In this document: positions 4,243-30,903 of the stretch, in pieces
Numbering within the stretch: the stretch's first letter is position 1
Layout: every line of letters begins with the position of its first letter
Sequence record: PX871048.2
Length of the DNA: 43,596 nt
From: a phage
Strand: one strand, 5' to 3'
Notes under the pieces: generated by a model
What the model was told of the DNA's origin: nothing
Database searches by the model: none
Seen by the model: only the letters and a program-made list of their open reading frames with translations
Program-made: the position numbers and the translations under genes

Positions 4243-4604
4243 ATATTAATTCTTATACTGGGTTGCCGTACGATTTTCGCCGTCGTAATTGCTGGCACCA
4301 CGTGCGTAACGTTCGTACCGACGCTGGTCTTTTTACGCCAGAGTTTAACGTCGCTTCACCAACACAGATTAACGACGCCTTCGAAGAAGGCCATAAAGAC
4401 ACTAAAGGCCTCGTACGCGTAGAAACTCCGCAAAACTTCGATGCCGTGCTGATGGCGACACGGCACAGAAACCGTGTAATCTGGCACGCTGGCGTATATT
4501 ATGATGGTATGGTCAGTCATTGCGAGTTAGCAAGTCGCCAGGTACGGTTAGACCGACTGGAAGACTTGCGCGAAACTTATGCGGAGATAGAATTTTGGCG
4601 CTGA
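4239..4604 (+). CDS. tail assembly protein, possibly NlpC/P60-like (Cys/His motif NCWHH)
   Basis: 121-aa ORF overlapping neighbours by 4 nt; Cys and His residues spaced like a small peptidase domain; weak. Confidence 0.35.
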   Translation: MNINSYTGLPYDFRRRNCWHHVRNVRTDAGLFTPEFNVASPTQINDAFEEGHKDTKGLVRVETPQNFDAVLMATRHRNRVIWHAGVYYDGMVSHCELASRQVRLDRLEDLRETYAEIEFWR

Positions 4605-6184
4605 TATTACATTACACCCGTAACGAAGACGGTACTTTTGACCGCAAACGGTATAACGTACCTCCGATGGAATACGTCGTTGCTAACATCCCAGACGGGG
4701 TACCTGTGCGTATTTACCGCGGCGAGATTGGTGATGATACAGACGTAACGGAAAACTTCGAAGCGCTGAAAGAAGATGACGTTTTCCATATCATCGAGGG
4801 CGCTGGCGGCGGTGGTGGTTTTCTTGGTAAACTCCTGGACCCTTTGGGTGTGCTTAAATTTGTTACCAAGTTGATTTCTCCGTCGCAGAAAACGCCTAAA
4901 ACGAGTTTAGCGAACCAGCAGGCGGAGTCTCCAAACAACAGCCTGACGGACCGAAACAATAAACCGCGTCCGTATGAACGGTCGTATGATATTTGCGGCA
5001 GGGTCCAGACTATCCCTAATGACCTCATGACTACGTATAAGGTCTTCAATGACGCAGGTGTGGTAGTCGAATACGGCTACTATGACGCCGGTCGTGGGTA
5101 TCTTGATATTAAAGCCGAAGACATCACCGACGGCGATACTAAAGTGCAGGAGATTACAGGAACTTCTGTAGCGGTATACGCCCCATTTACATCCCCTAAC
5201 AATACAAATACGCCTCAGCTTCTGGTGGGGGACCCTATCAATCAGAATCTGTACATAACTATTGCCTCGAACGAGGTAGATGGGGCCGTTCTTAAAGCGC
5301 AGAACGATATCAGGGTTAATCCCAGTGATACCGGTGAGATTTCATTGCAGGGGGCAACTGGTGTCGTCCGCGATAACACTGGCGACTCTGCTTTCTCTGA
5401 GATTTTATCGGTTGGGGACATAGCTGTTTTTAACCTTATTCTGGTAAAAGACGTGGCTAACGTCAGTGGTAGCTATACTGTTACATACGTAGATGACTTT
5501 GAGGTAAGAGTAGCCGCCGGAGGGGTGTTGTCAGAATGGCAAAAATTGCCATCGGGGTTCACTCCTTTAACGCAAGGTACCGAAGCATGGATTTCACCGT
5601 CGAACACTTACGATAAGTCGTTAACGGACTGGACTACTTTAAACCGCCTGGAAGTTGAACGCGTAGTAGCCAACATCGCGGCCGCGAATGGTATGTATAA
5701 AGACAACGGCAGTAAATTGCGCACGTCGGTAACTGTCGAGCTTCAGTATCAACTCCTTGATGAAACTGGCGTGCCGTACGGGGATGTTTACTCAAAACAG
5801 GCCGTTATATCAGGTCGTTCTGCGGATTACACAGGTGTTACTATTTACGCCGACTTGCCCATGCGGTCGAAAGTTAGGGTACGGGCCCGCCGTGTTACTA
5901 ACCTTGACCTTAGTTTCGAGGGGACCGTGGTAGACGAGGTTTCCTACATCAACCTTTATGGGCAGGTACGCGACACTACACCGCATTACGGCAACCGTAC
6001 TACCGTGCACTCCGCACGTAAGCGGTACGCGACACTACACCGCATTACGGCAACCGTACTACCGTGCACTCCGCACGTAAGCAGACGCCGCGGGCCGCGG
6101 AGATTAAGCAGCCGCAACTACGTATGGTTGCCACAGAGATGGTGTACAAATACCTCGGCAACGGCGTATTCGACACGGTTATGA
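4520..6184 (+). CDS. large tail-tip / host-specificity protein, N-terminal part; frame broken by 59-bp tandem duplication
   Basis: ORF reads in frame through repeat copy 1 (..TTVHSARK) then enters out-of-frame sequence and stops at 6184; true start probably TTG about 4595 or ATG 4667 rather than 4520. Confidence 0.55.
   Translation: MRVSKSPGTVRPTGRLARNLCGDRILALILHYTRNEDGTFDRKRYNVPPMEYVVANIPDGVPVRIYRGEIGDDTDVTENFEALKEDDVFHIIEGAGGGGGFLGKLLDPLGVLKFVTKLISPSQKTPKTSLANQQAESPNNSLTDRNNKPRPYERSYDICGRVQTIPNDLMTTYKVFNDAGVVVEYGYYDAGRGYLDIKAEDITDGDTKVQEITGTSVAVYAPFTSPNNTNTPQLLVGDPINQNLYITIASNEVDGAVLKAQNDIRVNPSDTGEISLQGATGVVRDNTGDSAFSEILSVGDIAVFNLILVKDVANVSGSYTVTYVDDFEVRVAAGGVLSEWQKLPSGFTPLTQGTEAWISPSNTYDKSLTDWTTLNRLEVERVVANIAAANGMYKDNGSKLRTSVTVELQYQLLDETGVPYGDVYSKQAVISGRSADYTGVTIYADLPMRSKVRVRARRVTNLDLSFEGTVVDEVSYINLYGQVRDTTPHYGNRTTVHSARKRYATLHRITATVLPCTPHVSRRRGPRRLSSRNYVWLPQRWCTNTSATAYSTRL
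5965..6082 (+). repeat. perfect 59-bp tandem direct duplication (5965-6023 and 6024-6082)
   Basis: two adjacent identical 59-nt copies; flanking bases differ; 59 is not a multiple of 3. Confidence 0.9.
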
Positions 6185-7206
6185 CACCGAATACTCAGGC
6201 GATTCAGTCCTTAATCCGTCTTGCCCGCGACCCGGTAGTAGGTAATCTCAACCTAACCACATCCAATATGGACAAGTTGTTAGCGACTCAGAACGAGATA
6301 GAAAACTATTTCGGTAACGCAGAGGCTGGTCAATTCTGCTACACTTTTGACGATTATAAAATGACTATGCAGGACATAATCAGCACAATAGCCGACGCTA
6401 TTTTCTGCACACCATATCGTAAAGGGCAAGACATATTACTGGATTTCGAGCGCCCTCGTATGGGGCCGGAGATGGTATTCACCCACCGCAGCAAAACTAC
6501 CGCGGCGGAGAAGTGGACGCGCACGTTTAACGACGCACAGGTATACGATAGTCTCAAGTTTTCATACATCGACCCAGATACTAACGTCAAAGAGACTATT
6601 AGCATCCCGGCCGAAGGAGGTGTTAATACCGAAACGTACGACTCTAAGGGTATCCGTAACTATCGACAGGCGTACTGGGCAGCTTATCGACGTTACCAGA
6701 AAAACTTGTTGAAGAAAGTCACGGTGTCCTTTACGGCGACAGAAGAAGGAGTTTTTGTGCTGCCTGGTCGCGCAATAAGCGTCGTTAAAGGTTCGCGCGT
6801 AGCGCCTCAAGACGGCTATGTTGTTGCCGTTAATGGTCTTACTCTGACTTTATCACAGCCGGTTACTTTTACCCCCGGAGACGACCACTCATTGATTCTT
6901 AAGAAGCGTGACGGTGGTGTTCAAAGTGTTGCCGTTGTGCCCGGAAGCCACGACCGTGAAGTGGTTATGCTCTCTGCGCCTCAGGAGGCGATATACACAG
7001 GGAATAGCGCACTAAAAACTGAGTTTTCATTCGGCAACGAAGCAAGGCATAATGCTCAGATGATTCTTGTTTCTACAGTTGACCCTGGAGACGACAGAAC
7101 GGTTAAGATTACTGGGATTAACTACGAAGCAGATTTCTATAAATACGACGGCGTCGCACCTTTCGGTAGCGGTTTCTCCGGCGGATTCAGCAACGGTTTT
7201 AGTTAA
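6064..7206 (+). CDS. large tail-tip / host-specificity protein, C-terminal part (starts inside repeat copy 2)
   Basis: 380-aa ORF; its frame equals the frame of the upstream ORF if one repeat copy is deleted (..HSARKQTPRAAEIKQ..). Confidence 0.55.
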   Translation: MHSARKQTPRAAEIKQPQLRMVATEMVYKYLGNGVFDTVMTPNTQAIQSLIRLARDPVVGNLNLTTSNMDKLLATQNEIENYFGNAEAGQFCYTFDDYKMTMQDIISTIADAIFCTPYRKGQDILLDFERPRMGPEMVFTHRSKTTAAEKWTRTFNDAQVYDSLKFSYIDPDTNVKETISIPAEGGVNTETYDSKGIRNYRQAYWAAYRRYQKNLLKKVTVSFTATEEGVFVLPGRAISVVKGSRVAPQDGYVVAVNGLTLTLSQPVTFTPGDDHSLILKKRDGGVQSVAVVPGSHDREVVMLSAPQEAIYTGNSALKTEFSFGNEARHNAQMILVSTVDPGDDRTVKITGINYEADFYKYDGVAPFGSGFSGGFSNGFS

Positions 7207-7218
7207 AGAGGACTCTAT

Positions 7219-9033
7219 ATGTCAAGCGGATGCGGTGACGTTTTAAGCCTGGCGGATTTACAAACCGCCAAGAAACACCAGATTTTCGAAGCCGAGGTTA
7301 TCACCGGTAAATCCGGCGGCGTTGCTACGGGTGCCGATATTGATTACGCAACCGATGCTGTTACAGGGCAAACCCAGAAAACACTCCCCGCCGTGTTGCG
7401 TGATGCCGTATTTACTCCGGTTGCGTGGGATTTCTCTACAGGCGGTACGTTAACAGTTAATGACCGCAACAAAGTGGTTTATGACCCGGTGAGCAAAACG
7501 TGGTACTCGTATGCAGGTACGTTGCCGGTTGTTGTCCCGGCATCGTTTAACCCGGTTGGTAATGCTAACTGGAAGCCACAGACCGACCCTGACTTACGAC
7601 AGGATTTAGCGGCTACTACCGCGCAGAAAGGAGCAAGCCTTGTCGGATATAAATCACCAGTAGCAGGCTCCGTAGCTACGACCTTGCAGTCAAAAGAATC
7701 GGAATACGTCTCTGTGTATGACTTCGGGGCGAAAGCTGAACCCGGATTTGATAATGCCACGGCATTTGCATTAGTAAAAACTGCCGCGGAAGCAGGTATT
7801 ACAATTTTGTTCCCAGCTGGGACTTATGAAACATCATCCGAGCTTACATTCACGTCAGCAGTTAAACTTGTGGGTATGCCTGGTACACGTATTAAGATAA
7901 CTGCACCAGGAAAAGCTCATGTCATGTGCATTGACCTTCGCGGCCCAGTTGGTGATTACTGGGGTTACGGGGTGCACCTGGAAAACTTCATTCTTGACGG
8001 TAATGGTAATGCGGTAGATGGATTATCTCTGCGCGGTGTTATCTCATCACGCTTTGTTAATATACGTGCTACTAACGTTACTCGTGCCGGTTTACATCGT
8101 TGGTGGACTCAATTATGTACCTTTGAGAATTTCCAGTGCTCATCTAACGTTGAAGCATTTACTACTACACCTGTTTACGGAATCCTCACTGACTGTGAGT
8201 TTGATACCGGAAATGACCGTGGAAGCTCTGCAGATACGATTACTAACCCAGAAATAGAGCATGTATCCGGTACAGGCATATGTGGGGTGTTTGAGTCAAA
8301 CTCCGTATACATAAACGGTACATCTGAAGGTAATAATATCGGAATAGCTTTCGGTAATACTGATAGCCGAAACCAGTCTGTTAGTAATACTGTAATAGGT
8401 ATGGACCTTGAGGTTAACACGGCTACAGATATTCTACTTTATTCGAACACCTATGCTAACGACTTCATTGGTTTGAAGGCAGGATATAACTCTCCTAGCA
8501 TCCAGGTACAAGGTTCTTTTGGGAATAAGTGGCTTGGCGGTTCATGTGCTGGTATTGATTTTTATAGCGAGTCCCATGATAACAGAGTGTATGGTGTTTC
8601 ACTGTTAGGCGAGGGGGCTGTAATAACAGATGCGGGGAGCCGCAACAAATACACTGATTGTTTTAATATTTCTACAGCAGCGGTCTCTGTATCAACAAAC
8701 CCTTACCCAAACCGCGGTAATAATGTTCTTGCTGCGAATGCCACCGCAACGATTGACCCTTACCGAGATAATCTTACTGTTGTTACCGCAACAAGTAGCC
8801 CTATTAATATTGTGTCCTCAACTACACCACTGGACGGCGCAAGAATGGATTTGGTAATCCATAATACAACTGGGTCGGATACCTTAGTTATCAACTGGTC
8901 TTCTGCGTTCAGGGTTGCTGGTTTTACAGCCCCCGCTGCCGGGAGACATCGTGGTATTTCCCTGGTCTATGATGCCAACTATGGCTACTGGTGTGTTGTT
9001 GGGATGGCAACGGCTGACGCAGTTAGCGTATAA
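7219..9033 (+). CDS. tailspike / tail fiber with pectate-lyase-like beta-helix (putative depolymerase)
   Basis: 604 aa; RBS AAAGAGG upstream; N-terminal anchor-like region then SVYDFGAKAEPGFDNATAF..LFPAGTYE typical of right-handed beta-helix glycanases; from memory. Confidence 0.7.
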   Translation: MSSGCGDVLSLADLQTAKKHQIFEAEVITGKSGGVATGADIDYATDAVTGQTQKTLPAVLRDAVFTPVAWDFSTGGTLTVNDRNKVVYDPVSKTWYSYAGTLPVVVPASFNPVGNANWKPQTDPDLRQDLAATTAQKGASLVGYKSPVAGSVATTLQSKESEYVSVYDFGAKAEPGFDNATAFALVKTAAEAGITILFPAGTYETSSELTFTSAVKLVGMPGTRIKITAPGKAHVMCIDLRGPVGDYWGYGVHLENFILDGNGNAVDGLSLRGVISSRFVNIRATNVTRAGLHRWWTQLCTFENFQCSSNVEAFTTTPVYGILTDCEFDTGNDRGSSADTITNPEIEHVSGTGICGVFESNSVYINGTSEGNNIGIAFGNTDSRNQSVSNTVIGMDLEVNTATDILLYSNTYANDFIGLKAGYNSPSIQVQGSFGNKWLGGSCAGIDFYSESHDNRVYGVSLLGEGAVITDAGSRNKYTDCFNISTAAVSVSTNPYPNRGNNVLAANATATIDPYRDNLTVVTATSSPINIVSSTTPLDGARMDLVIHNTTGSDTLVINWSSAFRVAGFTAPAAGRHRGISLVYDANYGYWCVVGMATADAVSV

Positions 9034-9037
9034 AACT

Positions 9038-9064
9038 AAGGCCCCGTCTGGGGCCTTTTTTTTT
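9038..9064 (+). terminator. rho-independent terminator (GGCCCC-GTCT-GGGGCC plus T9)
   Basis: GC hairpin followed by T-run directly after tailspike stop. Confidence 0.75.
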
Positions 9065-9202
9065 CTACTCTTCTGATAACTTCTCCAGTACAAACGCCAG
9101 TTGCGCGTTGGCGGCGTCTCTTTGCTGCCGTAATCGTAGGACCTCTTCTTCAAGTTCCTTGATACGTTTTTGCAATGCTGGAATCGGGGCTATGATGTTC
9201 AT
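9065..9202 (-). CDS. small coiled-coil protein (45 aa)
   Basis: ATG overlaps stop of upstream minus gene as ATGA; below track size cutoff. Confidence 0.3.
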   Translation of the reverse strand: MNIIAPIPALQKRIKELEEEVLRLRQQRDAANAQLAFVLEKLSEE

Positions 9203-9384: not shown

Positions 9385-10811
9385 TTCTTACTCCTACGTT
9401 TCATGTAATTAAGCAGCTCTTCCTGTACAGATTTCTTCTCATCTGTACGCGCGGCAACAACCTCGTCCAGCGTGTCTTTAGCAACGATGTGATAGAGAAA
9501 CACCGGGCGCTCGTGGCCTGCCTGTTTCTGGCGGACCGGGCCTATACGCTCGACAACCTGCAAATAGTGCTCAAGGTTCCAGCCTTGCGAGATGAACGCC
9601 AGATGATGTCCGCCATCCTGTAAATTCAAACCATGCCCGGCTGACGCAGGGTGTACGCATAAGATTTCTATTTCGCCGCGGTTCCACGCTTCCATCTGCT
9701 TATTACCCTTAGCACCTTTGGCAAACGCCTGTGCTTGCGGGAATCGTTTAAGGATGCGCTCCAGTTCGTGCTTGAACTGATAGGCTACCAGTAGCGGCGC
9801 GCCCTGTAACTCCTCAACAATTGACTCCAGCGCATCCAGTTTCGTGTCGTGCACTTTCTCCCAGTCTTTTGTCGCTTCTCCGTCTGGTCCCGACACATAT
9901 ACGGCACCGGATGCAATCTGCAAACACTTCGACGTCTTCGCTGCCGCGTTAGCTGCCTCAACTTCTCCGCTCTCCAGTTCCGCAAATAACTTCTCCTCCA
10001 TATCTATGTACGCCTGACGCGCTTTCTTCGGCAGGTCGATTTCAACAGGTACGATAACCGGCGCTTCGCATCCGAACCACTCAGCGGCGTCAATCGTGAG
10101 ACTGATGTCCTTCATCTTCTGGTGGATTTCAGTATCCGCACCCGGGCGGGCGTGGTACTCACGTGCCATAGCCGATTTGCCTTTTTGCACCGAGTTAAAC
10201 CAGCGGTCGGTGAATGCCGTGTACGATGAACCAAGTCGCTCGCCTGCGTCGATAAACCAGTTCTGCCCCCACAGGTCTTTGAGGCCGTTTGGCGACGGCG
10301 TACCTGTCAGGTTAATGAACCGCTTAACCTTGCCGAACGCCACTTTGCTGAGTGCCTTCGCGCGCTTGCTGCCGCCAGAACGGCTACGGAAAGATTTAAG
10401 TTTCGTGCTTTCATCGGCAACGATAACCGTAAAAGGCCAGTCGTCTTTGCCGTAGTAGTCAATCAGCCACTCGATAACTTCGTAGTTCGTACACACTACG
10501 TTAGCATCCGACTCCAGCGCCGCGATGCGGCGCTTCTCTGAACCAGTCGCATCGACGACACGCAGACAAGGGAAGTTCCAACGTGCCTGTTCCGCGGGCC
10601 ACGTACCTGACGCAACACGTAAAGGGGCAAGAATTAACACTCGGTCGTCGTCATTAAGTTGCCCATTACGGAACAGTCGATTGAGAACCCACAACGTTGA
10701 CCCCGACTTGCCGCTGCCCATCGAAGCCCAAATATTACAGCGAGGGTGCCGCAGCATGAACGAAGTCATGAGCTTTTGGTACTCTCGACGGATAAATTTA
10801 GACATAATCAA
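9381..10811 (-). CDS. SF2 (SNF2/DEAD-like) DNA helicase
   Basis: Walker A SMGSGKSGST, Walker B VIVADEST, 476 aa. Confidence 0.75.
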   Translation of the reverse strand: MIMSKFIRREYQKLMTSFMLRHPRCNIWASMGSGKSGSTLWVLNRLFRNGQLNDDDRVLILAPLRVASGTWPAEQARWNFPCLRVVDATGSEKRRIAALESDANVVCTNYEVIEWLIDYYGKDDWPFTVIVADESTKLKSFRSRSGGSKRAKALSKVAFGKVKRFINLTGTPSPNGLKDLWGQNWFIDAGERLGSSYTAFTDRWFNSVQKGKSAMAREYHARPGADTEIHQKMKDISLTIDAAEWFGCEAPVIVPVEIDLPKKARQAYIDMEEKLFAELESGEVEAANAAAKTSKCLQIASGAVYVSGPDGEATKDWEKVHDTKLDALESIVEELQGAPLLVAYQFKHELERILKRFPQAQAFAKGAKGNKQMEAWNRGEIEILCVHPASAGHGLNLQDGGHHLAFISQGWNLEHYLQVVERIGPVRQKQAGHERPVFLYHIVAKDTLDEVVAARTDEKKSVQEELLNYMKRRSKK

Positions 10812-11002
10812 CCCTTAACGTAGAGCACCAGCTCTTTACGCCCGAACGCCGTAACGTTACCCGTTACATCTTCGATAACCAGTTTACCGTTCGACTCGAC
10901 GAACACCGTATCAACGGCAACCGGACGTCGGGTCTTAACGTTGAAAATCATGTCGCCCGGTACGATGTCACGTGCGGGTTTGCGGTCATATTCGTGTTTC
11001 AT
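10808..11002 (-). CDS. hypothetical protein
   Basis: 64-aa ORF overlapping helicase start by 4 nt; RBS AAGGA. Confidence 0.45.
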   Translation of the reverse strand: MKHEYDRKPARDIVPGDMIFNVKTRRPVAVDTVFVESNGKLVIEDVTGNVTAFGRKELVLYVKG

Positions 11003-17869: not shown

Positions 17870-20137
17870 CTATTCCAAATCCTCCTCTGTCACTATCAGC
17901 ATTTCATTCGGCTCGTATATTGTCTTCGGAATCTTGTTATCCGTTATCCTGGTATTAAGCCTGTAACGACCAGGGATTATCTGATTGTTTTCGTCAGTAC
18001 CCGGAACAAGATACCCGGCCTCGACCATTTTCTTAATCTTCCCTCGCTCTATGGCTTCTTTGGAGTTAAACGCCTTCGCATTGGGGTCGGACTGTGCGAG
18101 CTTATTTGCGGCGGCTACCGTGATACCTTCGTTGCCGTTGTAGGTTCCTTCCGCCAGTTCAAACGCGGCCAGTATCGTGGCCTCGGAACTGTTGACGGCG
18201 TTCTCTACGGTTTTACGTACGTTTTCTTTACCTTCCTTTGTTAGCCCTTCTTCGCGCTCTTTTTCCTCGTCGGTTTTGAACGGTTCGAAACCCCACGGCA
18301 TCAGCACAAGCGCCTTGTGTGGTTCAGGCAGGTCGAGGTTTACTATTGTGCCGTATTCCTCTGTGCTACCGAGGAACTCAACAGCGCGGTACTCTTTCGG
18401 CGGCGGCGCTTCACGGAACTGTACCGACTCAAGCACCATACCAACCGTCTTCTGTTGAGGCCCGTGCTTAAATTTCGAGTGGTATACGTTTATCTGGCGG
18501 TCGGTCGCGCGTTCAATTGTCAGTTCCACGTCGACGCCAGCATACAGCGCCCCACTACCACGGGCTTTCTTTCCACCCTTCGGCGTATGGTGAACAACGC
18601 CTACCGCGGCTTTAGTCGCGTCACGCACTTCTTTCAGGATGGCGATAACTTTACCCATGCCGATTGCCGTTGATGAGCTGTTCTCGTCGAACTTATCAAT
18701 AGTCAGTGCCAGGGTCTGGTTGAGGGTGTCAAACGCGACCATGCCAATTGGCTCGTCGCCAGCAGTTTCGCGCATTAACTTAATCAGGCTCTTCAGTTTG
18801 CCGACTTCGCCCATATCGATGACATGTACGTAATCTTTACCCTCTGCGCCGTATTTAGCAGCGAGCGCGTCAATACGTGTACGTGTGGCCGCGCCGCCCT
18901 CACCGTCGATATAGAAGTGGTGGCAACGCTGCGTATCAGCTCCCGCAAACCGGTATCCTGCGGCGCTAAGGTACATCATCCCCAGTGTATAAAACGATTT
19001 GTACGTGCCAGATTCCCCGACGATATCCCAGATACAATCTGATGGCATGTACCCTTCAACGACGAAATCAGCCTTTACCGGTTCCGGTAACTCATCCTCC
19101 TCTGAGTCCTCGTCGTCTTCCAGGTCGTCGAGGCTGCATGAAACTGATTCACGCGCGCCCCAGCCAATTGCCTCAGCGACTTCACTGAACGGCAGCCCAG
19201 TCGCATCGCACGCATACTTCCACACCTCTTTCGGTGACATGCCTTCGGTTGCCGTAATGTCGGTGTCGTGAATCATGGTTACGTTAGGCGCTTCATATCC
19301 TTCGCGTGGGAAGCACAGCAGGAAGTCGTCCGGGCGCGGGGTAGGGTCACTGTAGTTTTCGGCGTGTTCTGGTGTGGCTGGCATTTTCAGGCCGCGGGGC
19401 GTCAGGACTCCGCCGTACTCGAACGCCAGTGCTTCGAACGCATCAGTAAACGCTGTGCGCAGTTCTTCCGGTATCTGGTAGTCAGATGCGCTGCTCACCT
19501 CGTAATCCGGGGTGCCTTCCAGTAACTCGTCCGGGTCAATCAGGTCGTTGCGGCGCGACCAGATAACGGTAGCGCCGACAGGAGGCAGGTACATCGGCTG
19601 GGACAGGGTAAAACCGCTGCGGTCGGCGCCCATGCCCTTGAAGAAGTGCTCCAGCAGACCGTGGCGGACGCGGATGATATCACCGCCTTCTACCGGGCGC
19701 GCCAGCGGCATGACGACACGGAAACGCGGCGATTCGTCAGTGTGCGATGCCGTAGTGTACAGGCACAACGCTACACGACTGCGCTTAACCAGACGCACAG
19801 CCTCCTGATACTCTTCCGGTGTTGCGCTGTCGAAGTCCAGATACGCCAGCGACGATTCGCTTACAGACGCGTCACAACGGTAGAAGAAGCCTTTACGCGC
19901 TTGCTTAAAGTCACCGGTTTCCGGGTCTTTTACGGTGCTGTGCGTTGAGTCGCACGCGGCGGTAATGTAGCCCGGCGCGGTCTTTGGGTTAATCCCGTCA
20001 CGAACAGCATCTAGCGGCTGGATTAACTCTTTCAGGTCGTCCAGTGTTGCCGTGTGCGTGGTTCTGACGTTTATATCCTTTTTCTCCGCCCGCGCGTTGC
20101 GACGAGACCATGAATAGGATAAAATTACATCGGACAT
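17870..20137 (-). CDS. DNA primase / replicative helicase (primase-polymerase-like N-terminus, RecA-like ATPase C-terminus)
   Basis: 755 aa; Walker A-like GESGTYKS; RBS GAAGGAA. Confidence 0.65.
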   Translation of the reverse strand: MSDVILSYSWSRRNARAEKKDINVRTTHTATLDDLKELIQPLDAVRDGINPKTAPGYITAACDSTHSTVKDPETGDFKQARKGFFYRCDASVSESSLAYLDFDSATPEEYQEAVRLVKRSRVALCLYTTASHTDESPRFRVVMPLARPVEGGDIIRVRHGLLEHFFKGMGADRSGFTLSQPMYLPPVGATVIWSRRNDLIDPDELLEGTPDYEVSSASDYQIPEELRTAFTDAFEALAFEYGGVLTPRGLKMPATPEHAENYSDPTPRPDDFLLCFPREGYEAPNVTMIHDTDITATEGMSPKEVWKYACDATGLPFSEVAEAIGWGARESVSCSLDDLEDDEDSEEDELPEPVKADFVVEGYMPSDCIWDIVGESGTYKSFYTLGMMYLSAAGYRFAGADTQRCHHFYIDGEGGAATRTRIDALAAKYGAEGKDYVHVIDMGEVGKLKSLIKLMRETAGDEPIGMVAFDTLNQTLALTIDKFDENSSSTAIGMGKVIAILKEVRDATKAAVGVVHHTPKGGKKARGSGALYAGVDVELTIERATDRQINVYHSKFKHGPQQKTVGMVLESVQFREAPPPKEYRAVEFLGSTEEYGTIVNLDLPEPHKALVLMPWGFEPFKTDEEKEREEGLTKEGKENVRKTVENAVNSSEATILAAFELAEGTYNGNEGITVAAANKLAQSDPNAKAFNSKEAIERGKIKKMVEAGYLVPGTDENNQIIPGRYRLNTRITDNKIPKTIYEPNEMLIVTEEDLE

Positions 20138-20195
20138 GTGTATATTCCTTCAGCAAGTAATTTAGCCTCGGCGTTCACCGCGTCGGGGCTTTCTT

Positions 20196-20486
20196 TTAAC
20201 GTTTAGCCAGACATTCCATTAAATGTGAATATTTTCTGTAATAGCAAGGAACTAAATCACACCCAAAATAATGATAAACATAAGCCAAGTGGTCAGTAAC
20301 ATCTATAGCGGCTGACATTGTGCTAAGACGGCGAAGGCTAATCAACTGTAATTCTTCCGTAATGCAAAATGGTTCATACGTATCAAGTTTGCAAGAAACG
20401 TTAAAACACAGAGCATAGCCGTCTTGTGCGGAGTAGACCAGAAATGCGCTGTCGTTCTCTTTATCGTGAAAAATTACACCTTTCAT
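20196..20486 (-). CDS. hypothetical protein
   Basis: 96-aa ORF, ATGA-coupled to upstream HTH gene. Confidence 0.45.
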   Translation of the reverse strand: MKGVIFHDKENDSAFLVYSAQDGYALCFNVSCKLDTYEPFCITEELQLISLRRLSTMSAAIDVTDHLAYVYHYFGCDLVPCYYRKYSHLMECLAKR

Positions 20487-20653
20487 TTCACATTCTCCTT
20501 AACCCACGCTTCTACTTTATTTCGGTCAAACGTACCCGGCATACGGCGGCCCATTACTTTAACGCTGCAATCAGGAAACTTCCCGCTTTTAATCCAGTTA
20601 TTTATTGTCTGACGAGTAACTCCGATTAATTCTGCAACCTCGTTTATAGTCAT
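20483..20653 (-). CDS. AlpA/excisionase-like HTH DNA-binding protein
   Basis: MTINEVAELIGVTRQTINNWIKSGKFP; start set at ATG 20653 with AGGAG RBS (track start 20743 rejected). Confidence 0.55.
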   Translation of the reverse strand: MTINEVAELIGVTRQTINNWIKSGKFPDCSVKVMGRRMPGTFDRNKVEAWVKENVK

Positions 20654-20758
20654 TTCACGATCTCCTGTGTAAGATGTAGTGAAGTATAAAGCGGTAACTT
20701 TGTAAAAGCAACCAAAACAACACACAAAGCCACTAAGATACAAAAGATGCTACTGGGA

Positions 20759-20787
20759 TTGACTTTTACTTAAAAATGTGCTAAGCT
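20759..20787 (+). promoter_or_regulatory. promoter TTGACT-17-TGnTAAGCT (extended -10) driving structured element A
   Basis: same hexamers, spacing and TGn as the promoter at about 33037-33065. Confidence 0.45.
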
Positions 20788-20891
20788 TCACTGAGCTTGT
20801 GAGATATCGCAAGCGACCGCGGAGCGGCAGGGAACGCAACGCGTGCCATTAGGCACTTGAGTGTAGTTCCGCTGGCGCTTTCGGAAGGGCC
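20782..20891 (+). ncRNA. candidate structured RNA element A (paralog of 33060-33168)
   Basis: about 75 percent identical to copy B with conserved blocks GAGCTTGTGA, AAGCGACCGCGG, TTCGGAAGGGCC and a covarying hairpin GTGCC-ATTA-GGCAC vs GGAC-GTAA-GTCC; no ORF. Confidence 0.35.
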
Positions 20892-21066
20892 AAAGTCTAT
20901 TGTTAATCCCGCCTAAATACCCAAGTCACTGATAATTAAAGTTTCTATAGTTGCCGTAAGCGAGGTAGAGAGTACTTCACTCCGCTGTGGTGGGCTAACG
21001 CCCACCCACTGCGTTGCGTACTCTTTTAAGAAACGAAAGAATCACAACGGCAACGTAACTATTCTC

Positions 21067-21095
21067 TTGCACACCCCAACATAATAGGATACTAT
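21067..21095 (+). promoter_or_regulatory. sigma70-type promoter, class I (TTGCAC-17-TACTAT) with AATAG-N4-CTATT palindrome over -10
   Basis: TTGCAC ACCCCAACATAATAGGA TACTAT; identical 33-mer at 42676-42707 on minus. Confidence 0.65.
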
Positions 21096-21129
21096 TCACT
21101 TATCGAAACGAGACAGAGGAGTGAGGGTT

Positions 21130-21321
21130 ATGTTTAAAAAGGGTCAGTTGGTTAAAAGTGCCGACGGTAAACACGGCATAATTGAATTAAAATCATCTTT
21201 ATTTCCCGGGCAGTACGTAGTGACTGTGCAAAAGGTGAGAGGTGTAAATTCGAAAACATACGTAGCAGAGAGGAACTTAGAACTCATCGGCAACAATTTT
21301 AAATTCAAAGGGGCGAAGTGA
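21130..21321 (+). CDS. hypothetical early protein
   Basis: ATG with GAGGAG RBS; 63 aa. Confidence 0.5.
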   Translation: MFKKGQLVKSADGKHGIIELKSSLFPGQYVVTVQKVRGVNSKTYVAERNLELIGNNFKFKGAK

Positions 21322-21521
21322 TGGAAGAATTATTTGAAGAACTGAAACATCATAAACTGGAGAAAGTACATTTCCAGGTAAACAGGTACGAGGTTGTTAT
21401 TTTAGATGGAAAAACAATTATCACAGATTCTGCCAGGAGAATGCTTCATATTCTACGCTTCATACGAACGGCATCGAATCATGATGCTCGTGCCTACGAC
21501 TCTGAGGGAGGTTGCCGTTAA
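21321..21521 (+). CDS. hypothetical early protein
   Basis: ORF in track, start ATG 21321. Confidence 0.45.
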   Translation: MEELFEELKHHKLEKVHFQVNRYEVVILDGKTIITDSARRMLHILRFIRTASNHDARAYDSEGGCR

Positions 21522-21712
21522 TGAGAATTCGTATAACTGATGTTGATTATGTTCCGCCGCCGGATTATGGCGACCCTTCGTTACGTGACTTCGGTATCTC
21601 AGTCGGAGATGAGTTCGAGGTCACATTCAGTAATGTTTATGGTCACCTAGTTGAACACCGTGGCGAGGAACTGTTAATACGCGACCGTGAATGCGAAGTT
21701 CTGGAGGACTAA
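21521..21712 (+). CDS. hypothetical early protein
   Basis: ATG 21521 with GGAGGGAGG RBS. Confidence 0.5.
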   Translation: MRIRITDVDYVPPPDYGDPSLRDFGISVGDEFEVTFSNVYGHLVEHRGEELLIRDRECEVLED

Positions 21713-21715
21713 GTT

Positions 21716-21859
21716 ATGAGAGAAGCATTCGAACGGTGGGCGGTAGTCGAGGGTCTGCCGGTTAACAAGGGTTCAAAGAAAGAGTACCTGAATGTTAAGA
21801 CGCGTCTCGCGTGGCGGGCGTGGAAAGCTGGTGTTTTGTTTATCGCGAATCAGAGGTGA
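21716..21859 (+). CDS. hypothetical protein (47 aa)
   Basis: tight spacing between flanking genes; below track cutoff. Confidence 0.35.
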   Translation: MREAFERWAVVEGLPVNKGSKKEYLNVKTRLAWRAWKAGVLFIANQR

Positions 21860-21862
21860 GAT

Positions 21863-22057
21863 ATGAGCGAGTGGGTTAAGTGTAGTGAGCGGATGCCGAT
21901 GGCGTGCCGTGACGTAATAATAACCGACATGGATATGGTTTCCAGAGTGGCATGGTTCAACGATAGAAATGACGCCTGGTATGTCACAGGGGTTGGGTGG
22001 TTTTCACGTGATGAAGTGACGCACTGGATGCCGTTACCAGAGCCGCCTGATGTGTGA
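21863..22057 (+). CDS. DUF551-like phage protein
   Basis: ERMP..VTHWMPLPEPP C-terminal signature; from memory. Confidence 0.55.
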   Translation: MSEWVKCSERMPMACRDVIITDMDMVSRVAWFNDRNDAWYVTGVGWFSRDEVTHWMPLPEPPDV

Positions 22058-22099
22058 TGTTATATTGTAACAATAGTTTGGGATTTTACTGAGTGACTT

Positions 22100-22130
22100 A
22101 CGCTGCTACACAGCAGCGTATCATTTTTCT
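22100..22130 (+). terminator. rho-independent terminator (ACGCTGCT-ACAC-AGCAGCGT plus T-run)
   Basis: 8-bp stem then TCATTTTTCTCATTTTT. Confidence 0.6.
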
Positions 22131-22190
22131 CATTTTTGTTCTATTTCACCAAACGCAACAATCGAAGCGACTATTGCAGGAGATGCAATA

Positions 22191-22364
22191 ATGGTTACTA
22201 AAGAACAGGCCGAACGACTAATCACGTTAATCGACACGATGATTGATGTGAAAACCGATTCAGCAACGGCAACAGAGGAATCCAGTACCTGGTCGCTTGA
22301 AGAAAGAGAAGCAGAAGCGGAGCGCGAGTTACAGGCGTTCATCGATTCAATAACACACCAATAA
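22191..22364 (+). CDS. hypothetical protein (57 aa)
   Basis: AGGAG RBS 6 nt upstream of ATG; replaces spurious antisense track ORF 22130..22381. Confidence 0.4.
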   Translation: MVTKEQAERLITLIDTMIDVKTDSATATEESSTWSLEEREAEAERELQAFIDSITHQ

Positions 22365-22371
22365 AATTTAC

Positions 22372-22400
22372 TTGCACACACAGATATAATAGACTACTAT
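22372..22400 (+). promoter_or_regulatory. sigma70-type promoter, class I (TTGCAC-17-TACTAT) with palindrome
   Basis: TTGCAC ACACAGATATAATAGAC TACTAT; leader begins ATCGAAACGAGAGGAG. Confidence 0.65.
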
Positions 22401-22429
22401 TCAGTTATCGAAACGAGAGGAGAGAGAAG

Positions 22430-22567
22430 ATGGGCTGGTACGGTAGCTGGGCATTAGGTGAACTGGTAGACGCTTACGAAATAATGGGTAGCACTTCGGT
22501 GTGCGACGGTGACACTAAATCGCTGCTAGTCGGGGTCGATGAGAAAAGGGGTGAAGACGATGAATAA
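22430..22567 (+). CDS. hypothetical protein (45 aa)
   Basis: first ORF after promoter, RBS GAGGAGAG. Confidence 0.4.
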   Translation: MGWYGSWALGELVDAYEIMGSTSVCDGDTKSLLVGVDEKRGEDDE

Positions 22568-22715
22568 TTTCGTGGTGCAAGCAATGTACGCTGAGGAAAT
22601 GGCAAAAAGTATGTTAGAGCAAACATTACATTTCGCTAAGCTGCAAGGGTTCGACGTACAGACAGTAGGCGACGAAATAGTATTGACCGAGAAGTCGGAG
22701 AACGGCGATGAGTAA
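22560..22715 (+). CDS. hypothetical protein (51 aa)
   Basis: overlaps neighbours by 8 nt each side. Confidence 0.35.
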   Translation: MNNFVVQAMYAEEMAKSMLEQTLHFAKLQGFDVQTVGDEIVLTEKSENGDE

Positions 22716-23184
22716 CAACGACGCAGTAATCGAGTTCCTGCTTAACCAACTACGGCAGCAGTTAACTAACAACCCGTACAAGCAACAGTGCGAAGACCTG
22801 GCGCATGAGGTGCTGTCACTTAAGAATCAGTTACGTGACGCGTCGGAGCTGGTGGCTGAGTTACAGAGCGAGTTACAACATCAGATTGACCTGGCGGCAG
22901 GCGTGTATAGATGGTCTACCGCGCATTTCGACGAGAAAGGTAAAGTCTTCAAGGTCGAGAGTGGGGTTAAGACAGAGCAATCCGGTTGCCGGAAGGAAGA
23001 TACCCAGGGATGCGAGCATGATTGGGTGCTAGATGAAAAAGGGGACTACTTCATTTGCGCTAAATGCGGTAAGCAAGAATCGGAATTGAGCGATTGCCAA
23101 CACGCTAATACCGTCGGTTTGCGCAAAGGCTTTGCGCCGGGTTTTACTAAAAAGTGTCTTGATTGCGGGGCTAAACTGAAATGA
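22708..23184 (+). CDS. zinc-ribbon protein (two CxxC pairs)
   Basis: 158 aa; CAKCG..CLDCG. Confidence 0.5.
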   Translation: MSNNDAVIEFLLNQLRQQLTNNPYKQQCEDLAHEVLSLKNQLRDASELVAELQSELQHQIDLAAGVYRWSTAHFDEKGKVFKVESGVKTEQSGCRKEDTQGCEHDWVLDEKGDYFICAKCGKQESELSDCQHANTVGLRKGFAPGFTKKCLDCGAKLK

Positions 23185-28171: not shown

Positions 28172-29418
28172 GTATTCAGCTATCCGCCCCGCAGGCACTG
28201 TTCCTGAATTGCGATAACAAATACAAGGCCTATGTCGGCGGCTTCGGCAGCGGCAAGACATTTGTCGGCTGTCTGGACCTGCTTACTTTTATGCTAAAGC
28301 ATCCCGGTACGCGCCTCGGTTACTTCGGACCAACATACCCGGCCATCCGCGACATCTTCTACCCGACATTCGAGGAAGCGGCTAACCTGCTCGGCCTCGA
28401 TGTTCTGGTTAAATCCGGAGATAAAGAGGTTGTTGTTACCCGCGGTAAGACGGTGCTCGGAACTGTTATCTGCCGCTCGATGGATAACCCCGGCTCGATA
28501 GTCGGCTTCAAAATCGCGGCTGCGGTCGTGGATGAGCTGGACGTATTGAGCCGCGAGAAAGCTGAGCTGGCGTGGAACAAAATCGTAGCCCGTATGCGTC
28601 TTGTTATTCCTGGCGTAACCAACCACATCTCTGTAACCACGACGCCGGAAGGGTTCAAGTTCGTCTACGCCAAGTTCAAAGAGAATCCGACACCGAGTTA
28701 TTCAATGGTGCAGGCTTCCACTCACGAGAACGCGCGGTTCCTGCCGCCTGACTACATTAGTTCGCTGACCGAGACTTACCCCGCGCAACTGATTAACGCG
28801 TACCTGAACGGGGAGTTCGTCAACCTGACATCCGGCAGCGTGTACTACGCCTATGACCGCCGTAAGCATCGCAGCAAAGAGACAATTCAACCGGGCGACA
28901 CGTTGTACATCGGGCAGGACTTCAACGTTACGAAGAACGCCAGCGCCGTGTATGTACAGCGTAAAGATGGCTGGCACGCGGTGGCGGAACTGAAGGGTCT
29001 GTTCGATACGCCAGACACCGTGCGTGTAATTACTGAGAAGTGGAAGTCCCAAGGACACCGCATCGTCGTTTACCCCGACGCCAGCGGCAAGAACCGCAAG
29101 ACAAACTCGGCATCAATCTCAGATATCGCATTACTCCAGCAGGCCGGTTTTGATGTTCGCGCTAAACCAGCCAACCCTCCGGTTAAAGACCGTGTTTTAG
29201 CAGTGAATACCGCGCTGGAAAAAGGTAAGCTGTGGGTTAATGACCACTTATGCCCGGAGATAGCCAAGACGCTGGAGCAGCAGGCATACGACGATAACGG
29301 AGAGCCCGCTAAAGACGGCGTTATCGACCATATGGCGGATGCTCTCGGCTATCCTGTAGTTTACGAGATGCCGGTGGTTAAACCAGTAATCAACATCCCG
29401 GTGACTTTCGCACTTTAA
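28168..29418 (+). CDS. terminase large subunit
   Basis: Walker A GGFGSGKT, Walker B AAVVDELD, nuclease-like C-terminus; 416 aa. Confidence 0.85.
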   Translation: MSIQLSAPQALFLNCDNKYKAYVGGFGSGKTFVGCLDLLTFMLKHPGTRLGYFGPTYPAIRDIFYPTFEEAANLLGLDVLVKSGDKEVVVTRGKTVLGTVICRSMDNPGSIVGFKIAAAVVDELDVLSREKAELAWNKIVARMRLVIPGVTNHISVTTTPEGFKFVYAKFKENPTPSYSMVQASTHENARFLPPDYISSLTETYPAQLINAYLNGEFVNLTSGSVYYAYDRRKHRSKETIQPGDTLYIGQDFNVTKNASAVYVQRKDGWHAVAELKGLFDTPDTVRVITEKWKSQGHRIVVYPDASGKNRKTNSASISDIALLQQAGFDVRAKPANPPVKDRVLAVNTALEKGKLWVNDHLCPEIAKTLEQQAYDDNGEPAKDGVIDHMADALGYPVVYEMPVVKPVINIPVTFAL

Positions 29419-29430
29419 GAGGATTATTCA

Positions 29431-30903
29431 ATGTTAACTATGAACGGTCAGAATCAGGGTGTTAAGACAAAACACCAGGAATGGCTGCAGCACTTCAATA
29501 AATGGCAGAAGGTTCGCCATGCTCTGGAAGGCGACCTTATTCGCTATCTTCGCAACGTCGGGAAGAATGAGCCTGACCCGACCTACGCGGCCCAGCGCCA
29601 GGAAGAATACGAGAACGGCGCCATCTGCTACAACTTCACCAAACGTACCCTGGCGGGGATGGTCGGCAGCGTTATGCGTAAAGACCCCGAGCAGATTATC
29701 CCGCCTGAACTGGAGTACCTGTTGCGCAACGCCGACGGTTCCGGTGTCGGGCTGTGGCAGCACGCGCAGGATACGCTAATGGAGATTGACTCAGTGGGCC
29801 GTGGCGGGTTGCTGGTGGACGCCCCGGAGACAGCCGCAGCAACGGCGGCAGAGCAGAACGCAGGGTTGTTAAACCCGGTCATCGCATTCTACACCGCAGA
29901 GAACATCATCAACTGGCGGCTGACACGCATCGGTTCAGTTAACCGCGTGACGATGGTCGTGCTGCGCGAGGCATGGGAGTACTCAGAACCTGGCGCGGAA
30001 TTTGATACCAAGTTCGGCGAGCAATACCGCGTCCTTGACCTGATTGACGGTCGCTACCGCCAGCGCATCTATCGCTTCGATGCCGAAGGTGGCGCTCAGG
30101 ATGAAGTAATCGAAATATTCCCGGAGCTTGGCGAACAGTTGCGCGGCAAAATCCCGTTCACGTTCATTGGGGCAAGCAACAACGATGCAACCATTGACGA
30201 CGCACCTTTGCTGCCGTTGGCTGAGCTTAATATTGGGCATTTCCGCAACAGCGCGGACAATGAGGAATCCAGCTTCGTTGTAGGGCAGCCCACTCTGTTC
30301 ATCGCCCCTGGCGAGAACATGAGCGTGGAACAGTGGAAAGAAGCCAACCCTCACGGCGTGCGCATGGGGTCGCGCTCAGGCCATAACATCGGTTACGGCG
30401 GCAACGCGTTTCTGGTTCAGGCCGGAGAGAACAACCTCGCCAAACAGAACATGCTGGATAAAGAGAATCAGGCCATCCAGATTGGTGCGCAGCTTATCAC
30501 GCCGACGCAGCAGATTACCGCTGAATCAGCCCGCCTGCAACGTGGCGCTGATACATCCGTAATGGCAACCATTGCGCGTAACGTAAGCATGGCATACACA
30601 GAGGCGTTGCGTTGGGTGGCTGCTATGCTTGGGCTGCGTGAAGGCACGGAGATTGAGTTCAAACTGAACATGGAGTTCTTCCTGCAACCGATGACGGCGC
30701 AAGACCGCGCACAGTGGATGGCAGACATTAACGCTGGTTTACTGCCAGCAACCGCCTACTACTCCGCGCTGCGTAAGGCCGGGGTAACTGACTGGACCGA
30801 CGAGGATATTCAGAACGCTATCGAAGACGCACCGCTGCCGTTAGGCGCCGCTTCTCAGGTAGCAGGAGAAATTCCGCAGTCGGCGCAGCAACAGCAGGAG
30901 TAA
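29431..30903 (+). CDS. portal protein
   Basis: 490 aa immediately after large terminase. Confidence 0.7.
   Translation: MLTMNGQNQGVKTKHQEWLQHFNKWQKVRHALEGDLIRYLRNVGKNEPDPTYAAQRQEEYENGAICYNFTKRTLAGMVGSVMRKDPEQIIPPELEYLLRNADGSGVGLWQHAQDTLMEIDSVGRGGLLVDAPETAAATAAEQNAGLLNPVIAFYTAENIINWRLTRIGSVNRVTMVVLREAWEYSEPGAEFDTKFGEQYRVLDLIDGRYRQRIYRFDAEGGAQDEVIEIFPELGEQLRGKIPFTFIGASNNDATIDDAPLLPLAELNIGHFRNSADNEESSFVVGQPTLFIAPGENMSVEQWKEANPHGVRMGSRSGHNIGYGGNAFLVQAGENNLAKQNMLDKENQAIQIGAQLITPTQQITAESARLQRGADTSVMATIARNVSMAYTEALRWVAAMLGLREGTEIEFKLNMEFFLQPMTAQDRAQWMADINAGLLPATAYYSALRKAGVTDWTDEDIQNAIEDAPLPLGAASQVAGEIPQSAQQQQE

Follow-up and report, generated by a model that had tools for sequence, protein, structure and literature searches.

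What does the gene at positions 7219-9033 contribute to the way this phage selects its host, and by which chemistry would its product act on the bacterial surface? The window, i.e. the whole stretch of 43,596 nucleotides analysed here (PX871048.2), covers the entire genome of a small siphophage of the genus Kagunavirus (Guernseyvirinae), and a preliminary description had seen in this gene a tailspike and likely polysaccharide depolymerase. We put the probability at roughly 0.7 that the product is the single tailspike of this Kagunavirus, a trimer in which an anchor carries a beta-helix cassette that would cleave Escherichia O-antigen as an endoglycosidase.

The tailspike gene and its genomic setting

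The open reading frame named at the outset was recovered exactly, down to its ends, strand and start codon, and it is flanked by two expression signals:

7219-9033, plus strand: tailspike coding sequence, ATG start, 604 amino acids and stop codon (list of open reading frames)
7207-7212, plus strand: Shine-Dalgarno sequence AGAGGA, 6 nt 5' of the ATG (reading of the sequence)
9038-9066, both strands: intrinsic terminator AAGGCCCC-GTCT-GGGGCCTT followed by T9 (terminator scan and reading of the sequence)

The terminator is a strong one, with a stem-loop (9038-9057) that begins 5 nt past the tailspike stop codon and runs directly into the T9 tract; its 8-bp stem includes 6 G-C pairs, scores on the plus and minus strands alike and separates the tail genes from the replication genes, two blocks that converge on it. 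Short open reading frames that overlap the tailspike gene on both strands had no support and were disregarded.

Megablast places positions 9100-34000 of the window at 87-91% identity to Kagunavirus-type Escherichia and Shigella phages, the best match being Henuyfy11N (90.8% over 81%). The open reading frames 5' of the tailspike match phrog_469 and phrog_31 (tail protein, central tail fiber J), so that the tailspike gene sits directly downstream of a J-like tail-tip gene, and exactly this locus is the tailspike slot of Kagunavirus (PMC11990801). On its 3' side, across the terminator, follows the convergent replication block with helicase and DNA polymerase genes, and the same order (J-like gene, tailspike, replication block) is found in phages GZMU_E2010 and KMB36.

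The interpretation as a tailspike is further supported by its homologues. Residues 77-602 match phrog_18522, a 'tail protein' family, at E 6.3e-180 and over profile positions 80-611 of 612; a word-indexed protein database returned 1618 homologues at E<=1e-5, and an exhaustive representative library 1204 clusters at E<=1e-3, 57 of them at E<=1e-30. Judged by these searches, the tailspike signature is matched far more than chance would allow. Only two records match the gene by megablast over its full length, both from Kagunavirus-like phages in which a 604-aa protein annotated 'tailspike' occupies the slot after the J-like gene: vB_EcoS_GZMU_E2010 (PV845598), with 96.7% DNA and 97% amino acid identity over the full length, and hz69 (ON556632), with 92.7% DNA identity over the whole gene and 94% amino acid identity in the receptor-binding domain. 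On sequence grounds, then, the gene is an ordinary one of which near-identical copies are already deposited. NCBIfam holds no model for the protein; our literature search found no paper naming GZMU_E2010 or vB_EcoM_JN03, and the one paper found to mention hz69 is silent on its receptor. Outside the tailspike, the window is a different mosaic from GZMU_E2010 and hz69, and a homing endonuclease gene beside the helicase gene (~500 bp, L001 9399-9896) is present in GZMU_E2010 and absent from the window. The flanks of that gene lie almost contiguous in the window at about 10800-10826.

Some further observations concern the record as a whole. At 5965-6082 the J-like gene (about 4595-7206) contains a perfect tandem duplication of 59 bp (2.0 copies, 100% match), which shifts the frame and splits the gene into two open reading frames (4520-6184 and 6064-7206), whereas GZMU_E2010 has a single copy of the 59-bp unit and one intact 850-aa coding sequence. 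As its length cannot be divided by 3 and the J-like gene should be essential, the duplication is probably an assembly or circularisation artefact rather than a real mutation; if so, the true genome length would be 43,537 bp. The first base of the window is the ATG of a 778-aa open reading frame (1-2337), which probably encodes the tape measure protein, to judge from the annotation of the first feature in the corresponding stretch of GZMU_E2010. Since it spans a full Kagunavirus gene set, the window has the appearance of a complete genome that was rotated to begin at a gene. The lowest GC content of the genome (0.44-0.46) lies at about 20000-23000, where a switch from minus- to plus-strand genes and a sign change in GC skew coincide with it.

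A conserved anchor and an exchangeable cassette

Comparison with KMB36, a Kagunavirus with a different spike, fixes the module boundaries of the gene:

7219-7608, plus strand: N-terminal anchor module, aa 1-130 (megablast, tblastn, BLASTN against KMB36, phrog)
7447-7554, plus strand: PF18668 Tail_spike_N (TSP1/Gp66 N-terminal), a small beta domain inside the anchor, aa 77-112 (Pfam)
7609-9032, plus strand: exchangeable receptor-binding cassette, aa 131-604 (BLASTN against KMB36, GC content, distribution)
7609-7710, plus strand: neck or linker, aa 131-164, leading to the helix cap (hhalign and profile search of PDB sequences)

BLASTN against KMB36 gives 78% identity through 7608, none over 7609-9032 and 89% from 9033 onwards. 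In megablast, about 200 genomes of Kagunavirus and Jerseyvirus align with the gene over its nucleotides 1-390 only, each within its own tailspike gene and with an identity of about 82-88% among the Escherichia-phage matches listed, so the 'anchor-like' N-terminal domain of the preliminary description is real. By tblastn, Jersey- and Kaguna-type tailspikes show 62-85% amino acid identity over stretches that range from residues 1-113 to 1-149, and phrog tail spike families cover residues 1-114 to 1-172. PF18668 just passes its cut-off of 25 bits (25.1 bits, E 1.9e-5). The anchor has a GC content of 51.5%, close to the 50.9% of the genome, and the cassette one of 45.3%. From the KMB36 breakpoints, the conserved nucleotides 1-390 and the GC shift it follows that residues 1-130 are an anchor conserved in the subfamily, and that this attachment module is separable from a variable part, residues 131-604, which is a horizontally exchanged receptor-binding cassette.

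At its upstream end the cassette starts with the neck (aa 131-164), which to judge from the alignments is a likely recombination junction, and downstream it is bounded by the terminator. Cassette exchange together with a terminator-like downstream motif is general for the receptor-binding proteins of lytic coliphages, and the conserved, terminator-like 'motif three' downstream of their genes has been proposed as a recombination hotspot (PMC10408124). The terminator at 9038-9066 may correspond to this motif. DNA similarity to KMB36 and other Kagunavirus genomes resumes, past the variable cassette, just where the terminator sits.

Predicted fold

An AlphaFold2 monomer model, built from an alignment of 70 sequences, reached a mean pLDDT of 87.2 and a pTM of 0.74, and only residues 1-40 fell below 50. 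It consists of a beta domain (~66-120), a short helical neck and two larger parts:

7711-8688, plus strand: right-handed parallel beta-helix with three-strand rungs, about aa 165-490, putative domain for glycan binding and catalysis
8713-9030, plus strand: C-terminal beta-sandwich, aa 499-604 (strands of the model at 499-596)

The central domain thus has the right-handed parallel beta-helix of phage tailspikes in the model, as the preliminary description had anticipated from two peptides that to its reader resembled the start of beta-helix depolymerases. A prediction without a beta-helix would have spoken against that description, and none was obtained. These peptides, SVYDFGAKAEPGFDNATAF (residues 165-183) and ITILFPAGTYETSS (residues 194-207), fall at the start of a match to PF12708 (Pect-lyase_RHGA_epim) and on the first predicted rungs. 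The Pfam match spans residues 164-330 and stays below the gathering score of 27 (E 7.5e-5, 23.1 bits), and a precomputed PF12708 match is carried by most homologues. In the C-terminal domain the block-mean pLDDT is 84-96 as far as residue 600 and 79 over the final four residues; conservation of W560, P572, Y584 and W591 is 80% or higher among 50 aligned sequences. By analogy with other spikes, this beta-sandwich probably stabilises the trimer and possibly adds glycan contacts.

Foldseek ranked CBA120 TSP3 (E 2e-13) before CBA120 TSP1 and the Sf6 tailspike, and a viral structure library returned tailspikes and pectate-lyase-superfamily proteins only. The fold comparison list comprised (values as listed):

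AlgE4 A-module, 35.0
phi29 gp12, 33.3
Dettilon tailspike, 31.9
Geobacillus phage E2 ORF18, 31.5
RbmB lyase, 31.1
K5 lyase, 29.6
CBA120 TSP2, 29.3
HK620 TSP, 27.7
CBA120 TSP3, 27.3

Sequence links to tailspikes of solved structure

A single-sequence search of PDB sequences gave nothing meaningful, and relatives emerged there only by profile search. With the family profile, Sf6 gp14 (E 3e-22), a fragment of the Sf6 tailspike (E 2e-19) and CBA120 TSP3 (E 6e-18, profile positions 57-261) were found, the solved tailspikes being matched over the neck and first rungs only. In agreement, hhalign paired residues 124-293 with residues 116-301 of the Sf6 tailspike at 98.5% probability, and neither hhalign nor the profile search found anything significant against Sf6 past residue 293 (Sf6 301), a point before the active-site rungs. 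Because the matches to Sf6 and CBA120 TSP3 are confined to neck and first rungs, the neck is, as far as sequence comparison goes, a widely shared junction segment.

The tailspike of Sf6, a Shigella phage endorhamnosidase (PDB 2VBK, 7SG7), therefore resembles the window protein in two ways, by homology of neck and first rungs and by the same overall architecture of beta-helix and C-terminal beta-sandwich, but its catalytic region shows no detectable sequence homology to the window protein, with a structure-based identity of about 14%. An assignment to the Sf6-type endorhamnosidases finds no support, as homology does not extend to the catalytic rungs with the Glu/Asp pair of Sf6, and mapping catalytic residues through the Sf6 profile alignment failed where that alignment ends, at residue 293. 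With CBA120 TSP3 (PDB 5W6F, 6NW9), which is specific for E. coli O77, Foldseek finds similarity both in the N-terminal domain of PF18668 type and along the beta-helix. Neither the PDB profile search nor hhalign detected a solved relative of the catalytic part of the cassette family by sequence.

One cassette on several virion types

The cassette is found on at least four different N-terminal modules, listed here with the identity to the window cassette:

Guernseyvirinae anchor (window, GZMU_E2010, hz69): 94-97%
Kuttervirus TSP2 (SPTD1, PhiSH19, PM10, SE14 and others): 45%, with the JN03 spike (not assigned to a TSP number) at 52%
P22 head-binding domain PF09008 (Salmonella, Citrobacter and E. 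coli prophages): 44-56%
816-aa spike of the T1-like phages Msk and OzMSK: 42%

Among these, TSP2 of SPTD1 (Kuttervirus, Ackermannviridae) is the relative for which function has been studied. BLASTP aligns window residues 77-597 with TSP2 residues 197-723 (43% identity, 534 columns, E 3e-138), so that homology extends over the whole cassette, i.e. neck, helix and C-terminal domain, and TSP2 keeps the acidic residues E347, E370, D396, E398 and D404, to which we return below. It differs in that the 729-aa TSP2 of SPTD1 and PhiSH19 has another N-terminal module and belongs to the branched TSP complex of a myovirus. When the C-terminal part of CBA120 TSP2 was replaced by residues 250-729 of SPTD1 TSP2, spotting changed from E. 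coli O157 to Citrobacter sedlakii, and SPTD1 deprived of its native TSP2 cassette lost spotting on C. sedlakii (PMC9965104). From this swap, which involves a segment homologous to window residues 77-597, it follows that the cassette family is an experimentally validated, transferable determinant of host range. To carry the specificity of SPTD1 TSP2 itself (C. sedlakii ATCC 51493) over to the window spike is not justified at 43% identity.

The tailspikes of P22-like (Lederbergvirus-type) prophages in E. coli QML220601, Salmonella enterica and Citrobacter are 53-56% identical over residues ~78-603. They are 592-602 aa long and share the motifs NGTSEGN and GMDLEVN with the window protein, whereas their N-terminus is the podovirus head-binding domain PF09008 and not the Guernseyvirinae anchor. 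The variant of the window itself is known from only three phage genomes, and it is rare in sequenced E. coli, as just 1 of 5426 complete genomes, that of the yak isolate QML220601, carries a DNA-detectable relative, encoded by a P22-like prophage and 53% identical in amino acids. As to the T1-like phages, the 42% identical cassettes are encoded at 28869-30206 in OzMSK (PQ659294) and at 20586-21923 in Msk (MW057918). Both infect rough laboratory E. coli, which lack O-antigen, with LptD as the proposed receptor, yet encode a glycan-directed spike.

A candidate active site made of carboxylates

Conservation was profiled over 50 sequences, namely the query and 49 cluster representatives (50%-identity clusters) that span the cassette, the most distant of them at ~27% identity to the query. 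Two sites stand out:

8326-8328, plus strand: codon of Glu370 in the motif NGTSEGN, candidate catalytic carboxylate, conserved in 50/50
8404-8412, plus strand: codons of Asp396-Leu-Glu398 in the motif GMDLEVN, candidate catalytic residues, E398 conserved in 50/50 and D396 in 47/50

D404 (96%), D396 (94%) and E347 (92%) are the other conserved acids in this set, so that the conserved polar residues round the putative site (E347, E370, D396, E398, D404) are all carboxylates, and in the segment 340-410 there is no His, Lys, Arg or Tyr with 80% conservation in the 50 sequences. In three consecutive rungs of the model, the second strand (345-347, 368-370 and 396-398) has E347, E370 and E398, respectively, as its last residue, which should place the three above one another on a single face of the helix. 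Hence we propose Glu370 and Glu398 as candidate catalytic carboxylates and Asp396 as a candidate auxiliary residue.

Carboxylates only, placed on adjacent rungs, are the pattern of the characterised tailspike endoglycosidases of P22, Sf6 and HK620, and this resemblance speaks for a hydrolase rather than for a lyase or a spike that only binds. Beta-helix lyases, like the AlgE4 motif, are expected to present a basic, Tyr or His residue as catalytic base or carboxylate neutraliser. A scenario where the beta-helix is of the polysaccharide lyase or epimerase type and acts by beta-elimination on a uronic-acid glycan thus appears quite improbable to us, given that the polar residues of the putative site are carboxylates throughout, that residues 340-410 offer no well-conserved His, Lys, Arg or Tyr, and that the only link at the sequence level to a characterised enzyme leads to the Sf6 endorhamnosidase. 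Even less probable, to our minds, is a spike that uses the beta-helix as a mere scaffold for glycan binding, i.e. a non-enzymatic adhesin. Two invariant glutamates and three acids conserved at 92% or more persist down to ~27% identity and on several virion types, an invariance that would be hard to explain by the binding of different glycans; moreover, recognition and enzymatic processing of O-antigen are described for the tailspikes of the Kagunavirus isolates examined in PMC11990801.

As for the kind of putative hydrolase, 'GH28-related' is the name NCBI gives to some homologues. At E<=1, PF18668 and PF12708 were the only Pfam models to match the window protein. The GH28 family has its motifs in the order NTD, DD, GHG and RIK. 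The single resemblance to the last of these, R224-I-K226, lies on the first rungs and upstream of the conserved acids, which is the wrong order, and GH28 was set aside. The cassette family, with its 57 clusters at 50% identity (E<=1e-30), has neither a solved structure nor an assigned enzyme class. It may be tentatively envisaged, though we would not call it probable, that it constitutes an unclassified glycoside hydrolase family built on the Glu370/Glu398 pair, and that the variant of the window is directed at an O-serogroup of E. coli not yet covered by any described phage depolymerase.

Which polysaccharide?

The preliminary description had held that the substrate cannot be read from the sequence, and we concur: host entries, literature, E. 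coli genomes and phrog matches were followed, and none of these four routes gave a substrate. The host entries of GZMU_E2010 and hz69 state no serotype, and the passages searched in the paper on Ackermannviridae TSP subtypes give no receptor for a subtype that could be linked to the cassette. The O-antigen of QML220601 was left aside as a guide, as an identity of 53% would not transfer specificity. A phrog match to a tailspike with 'colanic acid degradation' was discarded, being weak (E 1.6e-4) and restricted to neck and first rungs (residues 123-207).

The substrate class can be approached by analogy. Virions with P22-like and Kuttervirus TSPs have, where receptors are characterised, mostly O-antigens as receptors, and because the relatives of the cassette sit in P22-like prophages and among Kuttervirus TSPs, O-antigen is the most likely class. 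The same architecture could instead serve a capsule depolymerase directed at a K-antigen or another exopolysaccharide, and Kagunaviruses K1G and K1H do use the K1 capsule. We nonetheless regard a capsular substrate as unlikely, since the relatives at 43-56% identity reside in P22-like prophages (Salmonella, Citrobacter, E. coli) and in Kuttervirus TSP2, and neither the Pfam scan nor the PDB sequence searches showed any similarity to endosialidases. Dependence on a glycan receptor as such appears to be general in Guernseyvirinae (PMC11990801).

Proposed mode of action and significance

Taken together, we favour the O-antigen-cleaving endoglycosidase and envisage its action as follows. The tailspike would be the single receptor-binding protein of this Kagunavirus siphophage. 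Residues 1-130 would fix it to the tail tip beside the J-like central fibre protein, and residues 131-604 are predicted to form the short neck, the beta-helix (~165-490) and the beta-sandwich (499-604). The spike is expected to assemble as a homotrimer, as do all its characterised relatives. The glycan bound by its helix would be the repeating polysaccharide on the surface of the Escherichia host, most probably the O-antigen, which the spike would cleave as an endoglycosidase, by a hydrolase rather than a lyase mechanism; catalysis, as the conservation pattern suggests, would be due to Glu370 and Glu398, helped by Asp396, Glu347 and Asp404. By such cleavage the virion may advance until it reaches the outer membrane, the site at which DNA ejection would be triggered. 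In this picture the open reading frame with its signals, the module boundaries, the predicted fold, the distribution of the family and the conservation pattern come from the analysis itself; the trimer, the catalysis, the hydrolytic mechanism and the O-antigen substrate are inferred.

Conceptually, the tailspike is nothing new but one more receptor-binding cassette shuffled among siphoviruses, myoviruses and podoviruses, a process already well documented. What is added here are its exact module boundaries, a confident fold, the predicted E370/E398 pair (with D396) and the link to SPTD1 TSP2. For the phage, the tailspike is the host-range determinant, and the swap points (residues 130/131 and the stop codon), along with the likely catalytic residues, are useful for the engineering of receptor-binding proteins as well as for serogroup-specific diagnostics or depolymerase reagents.
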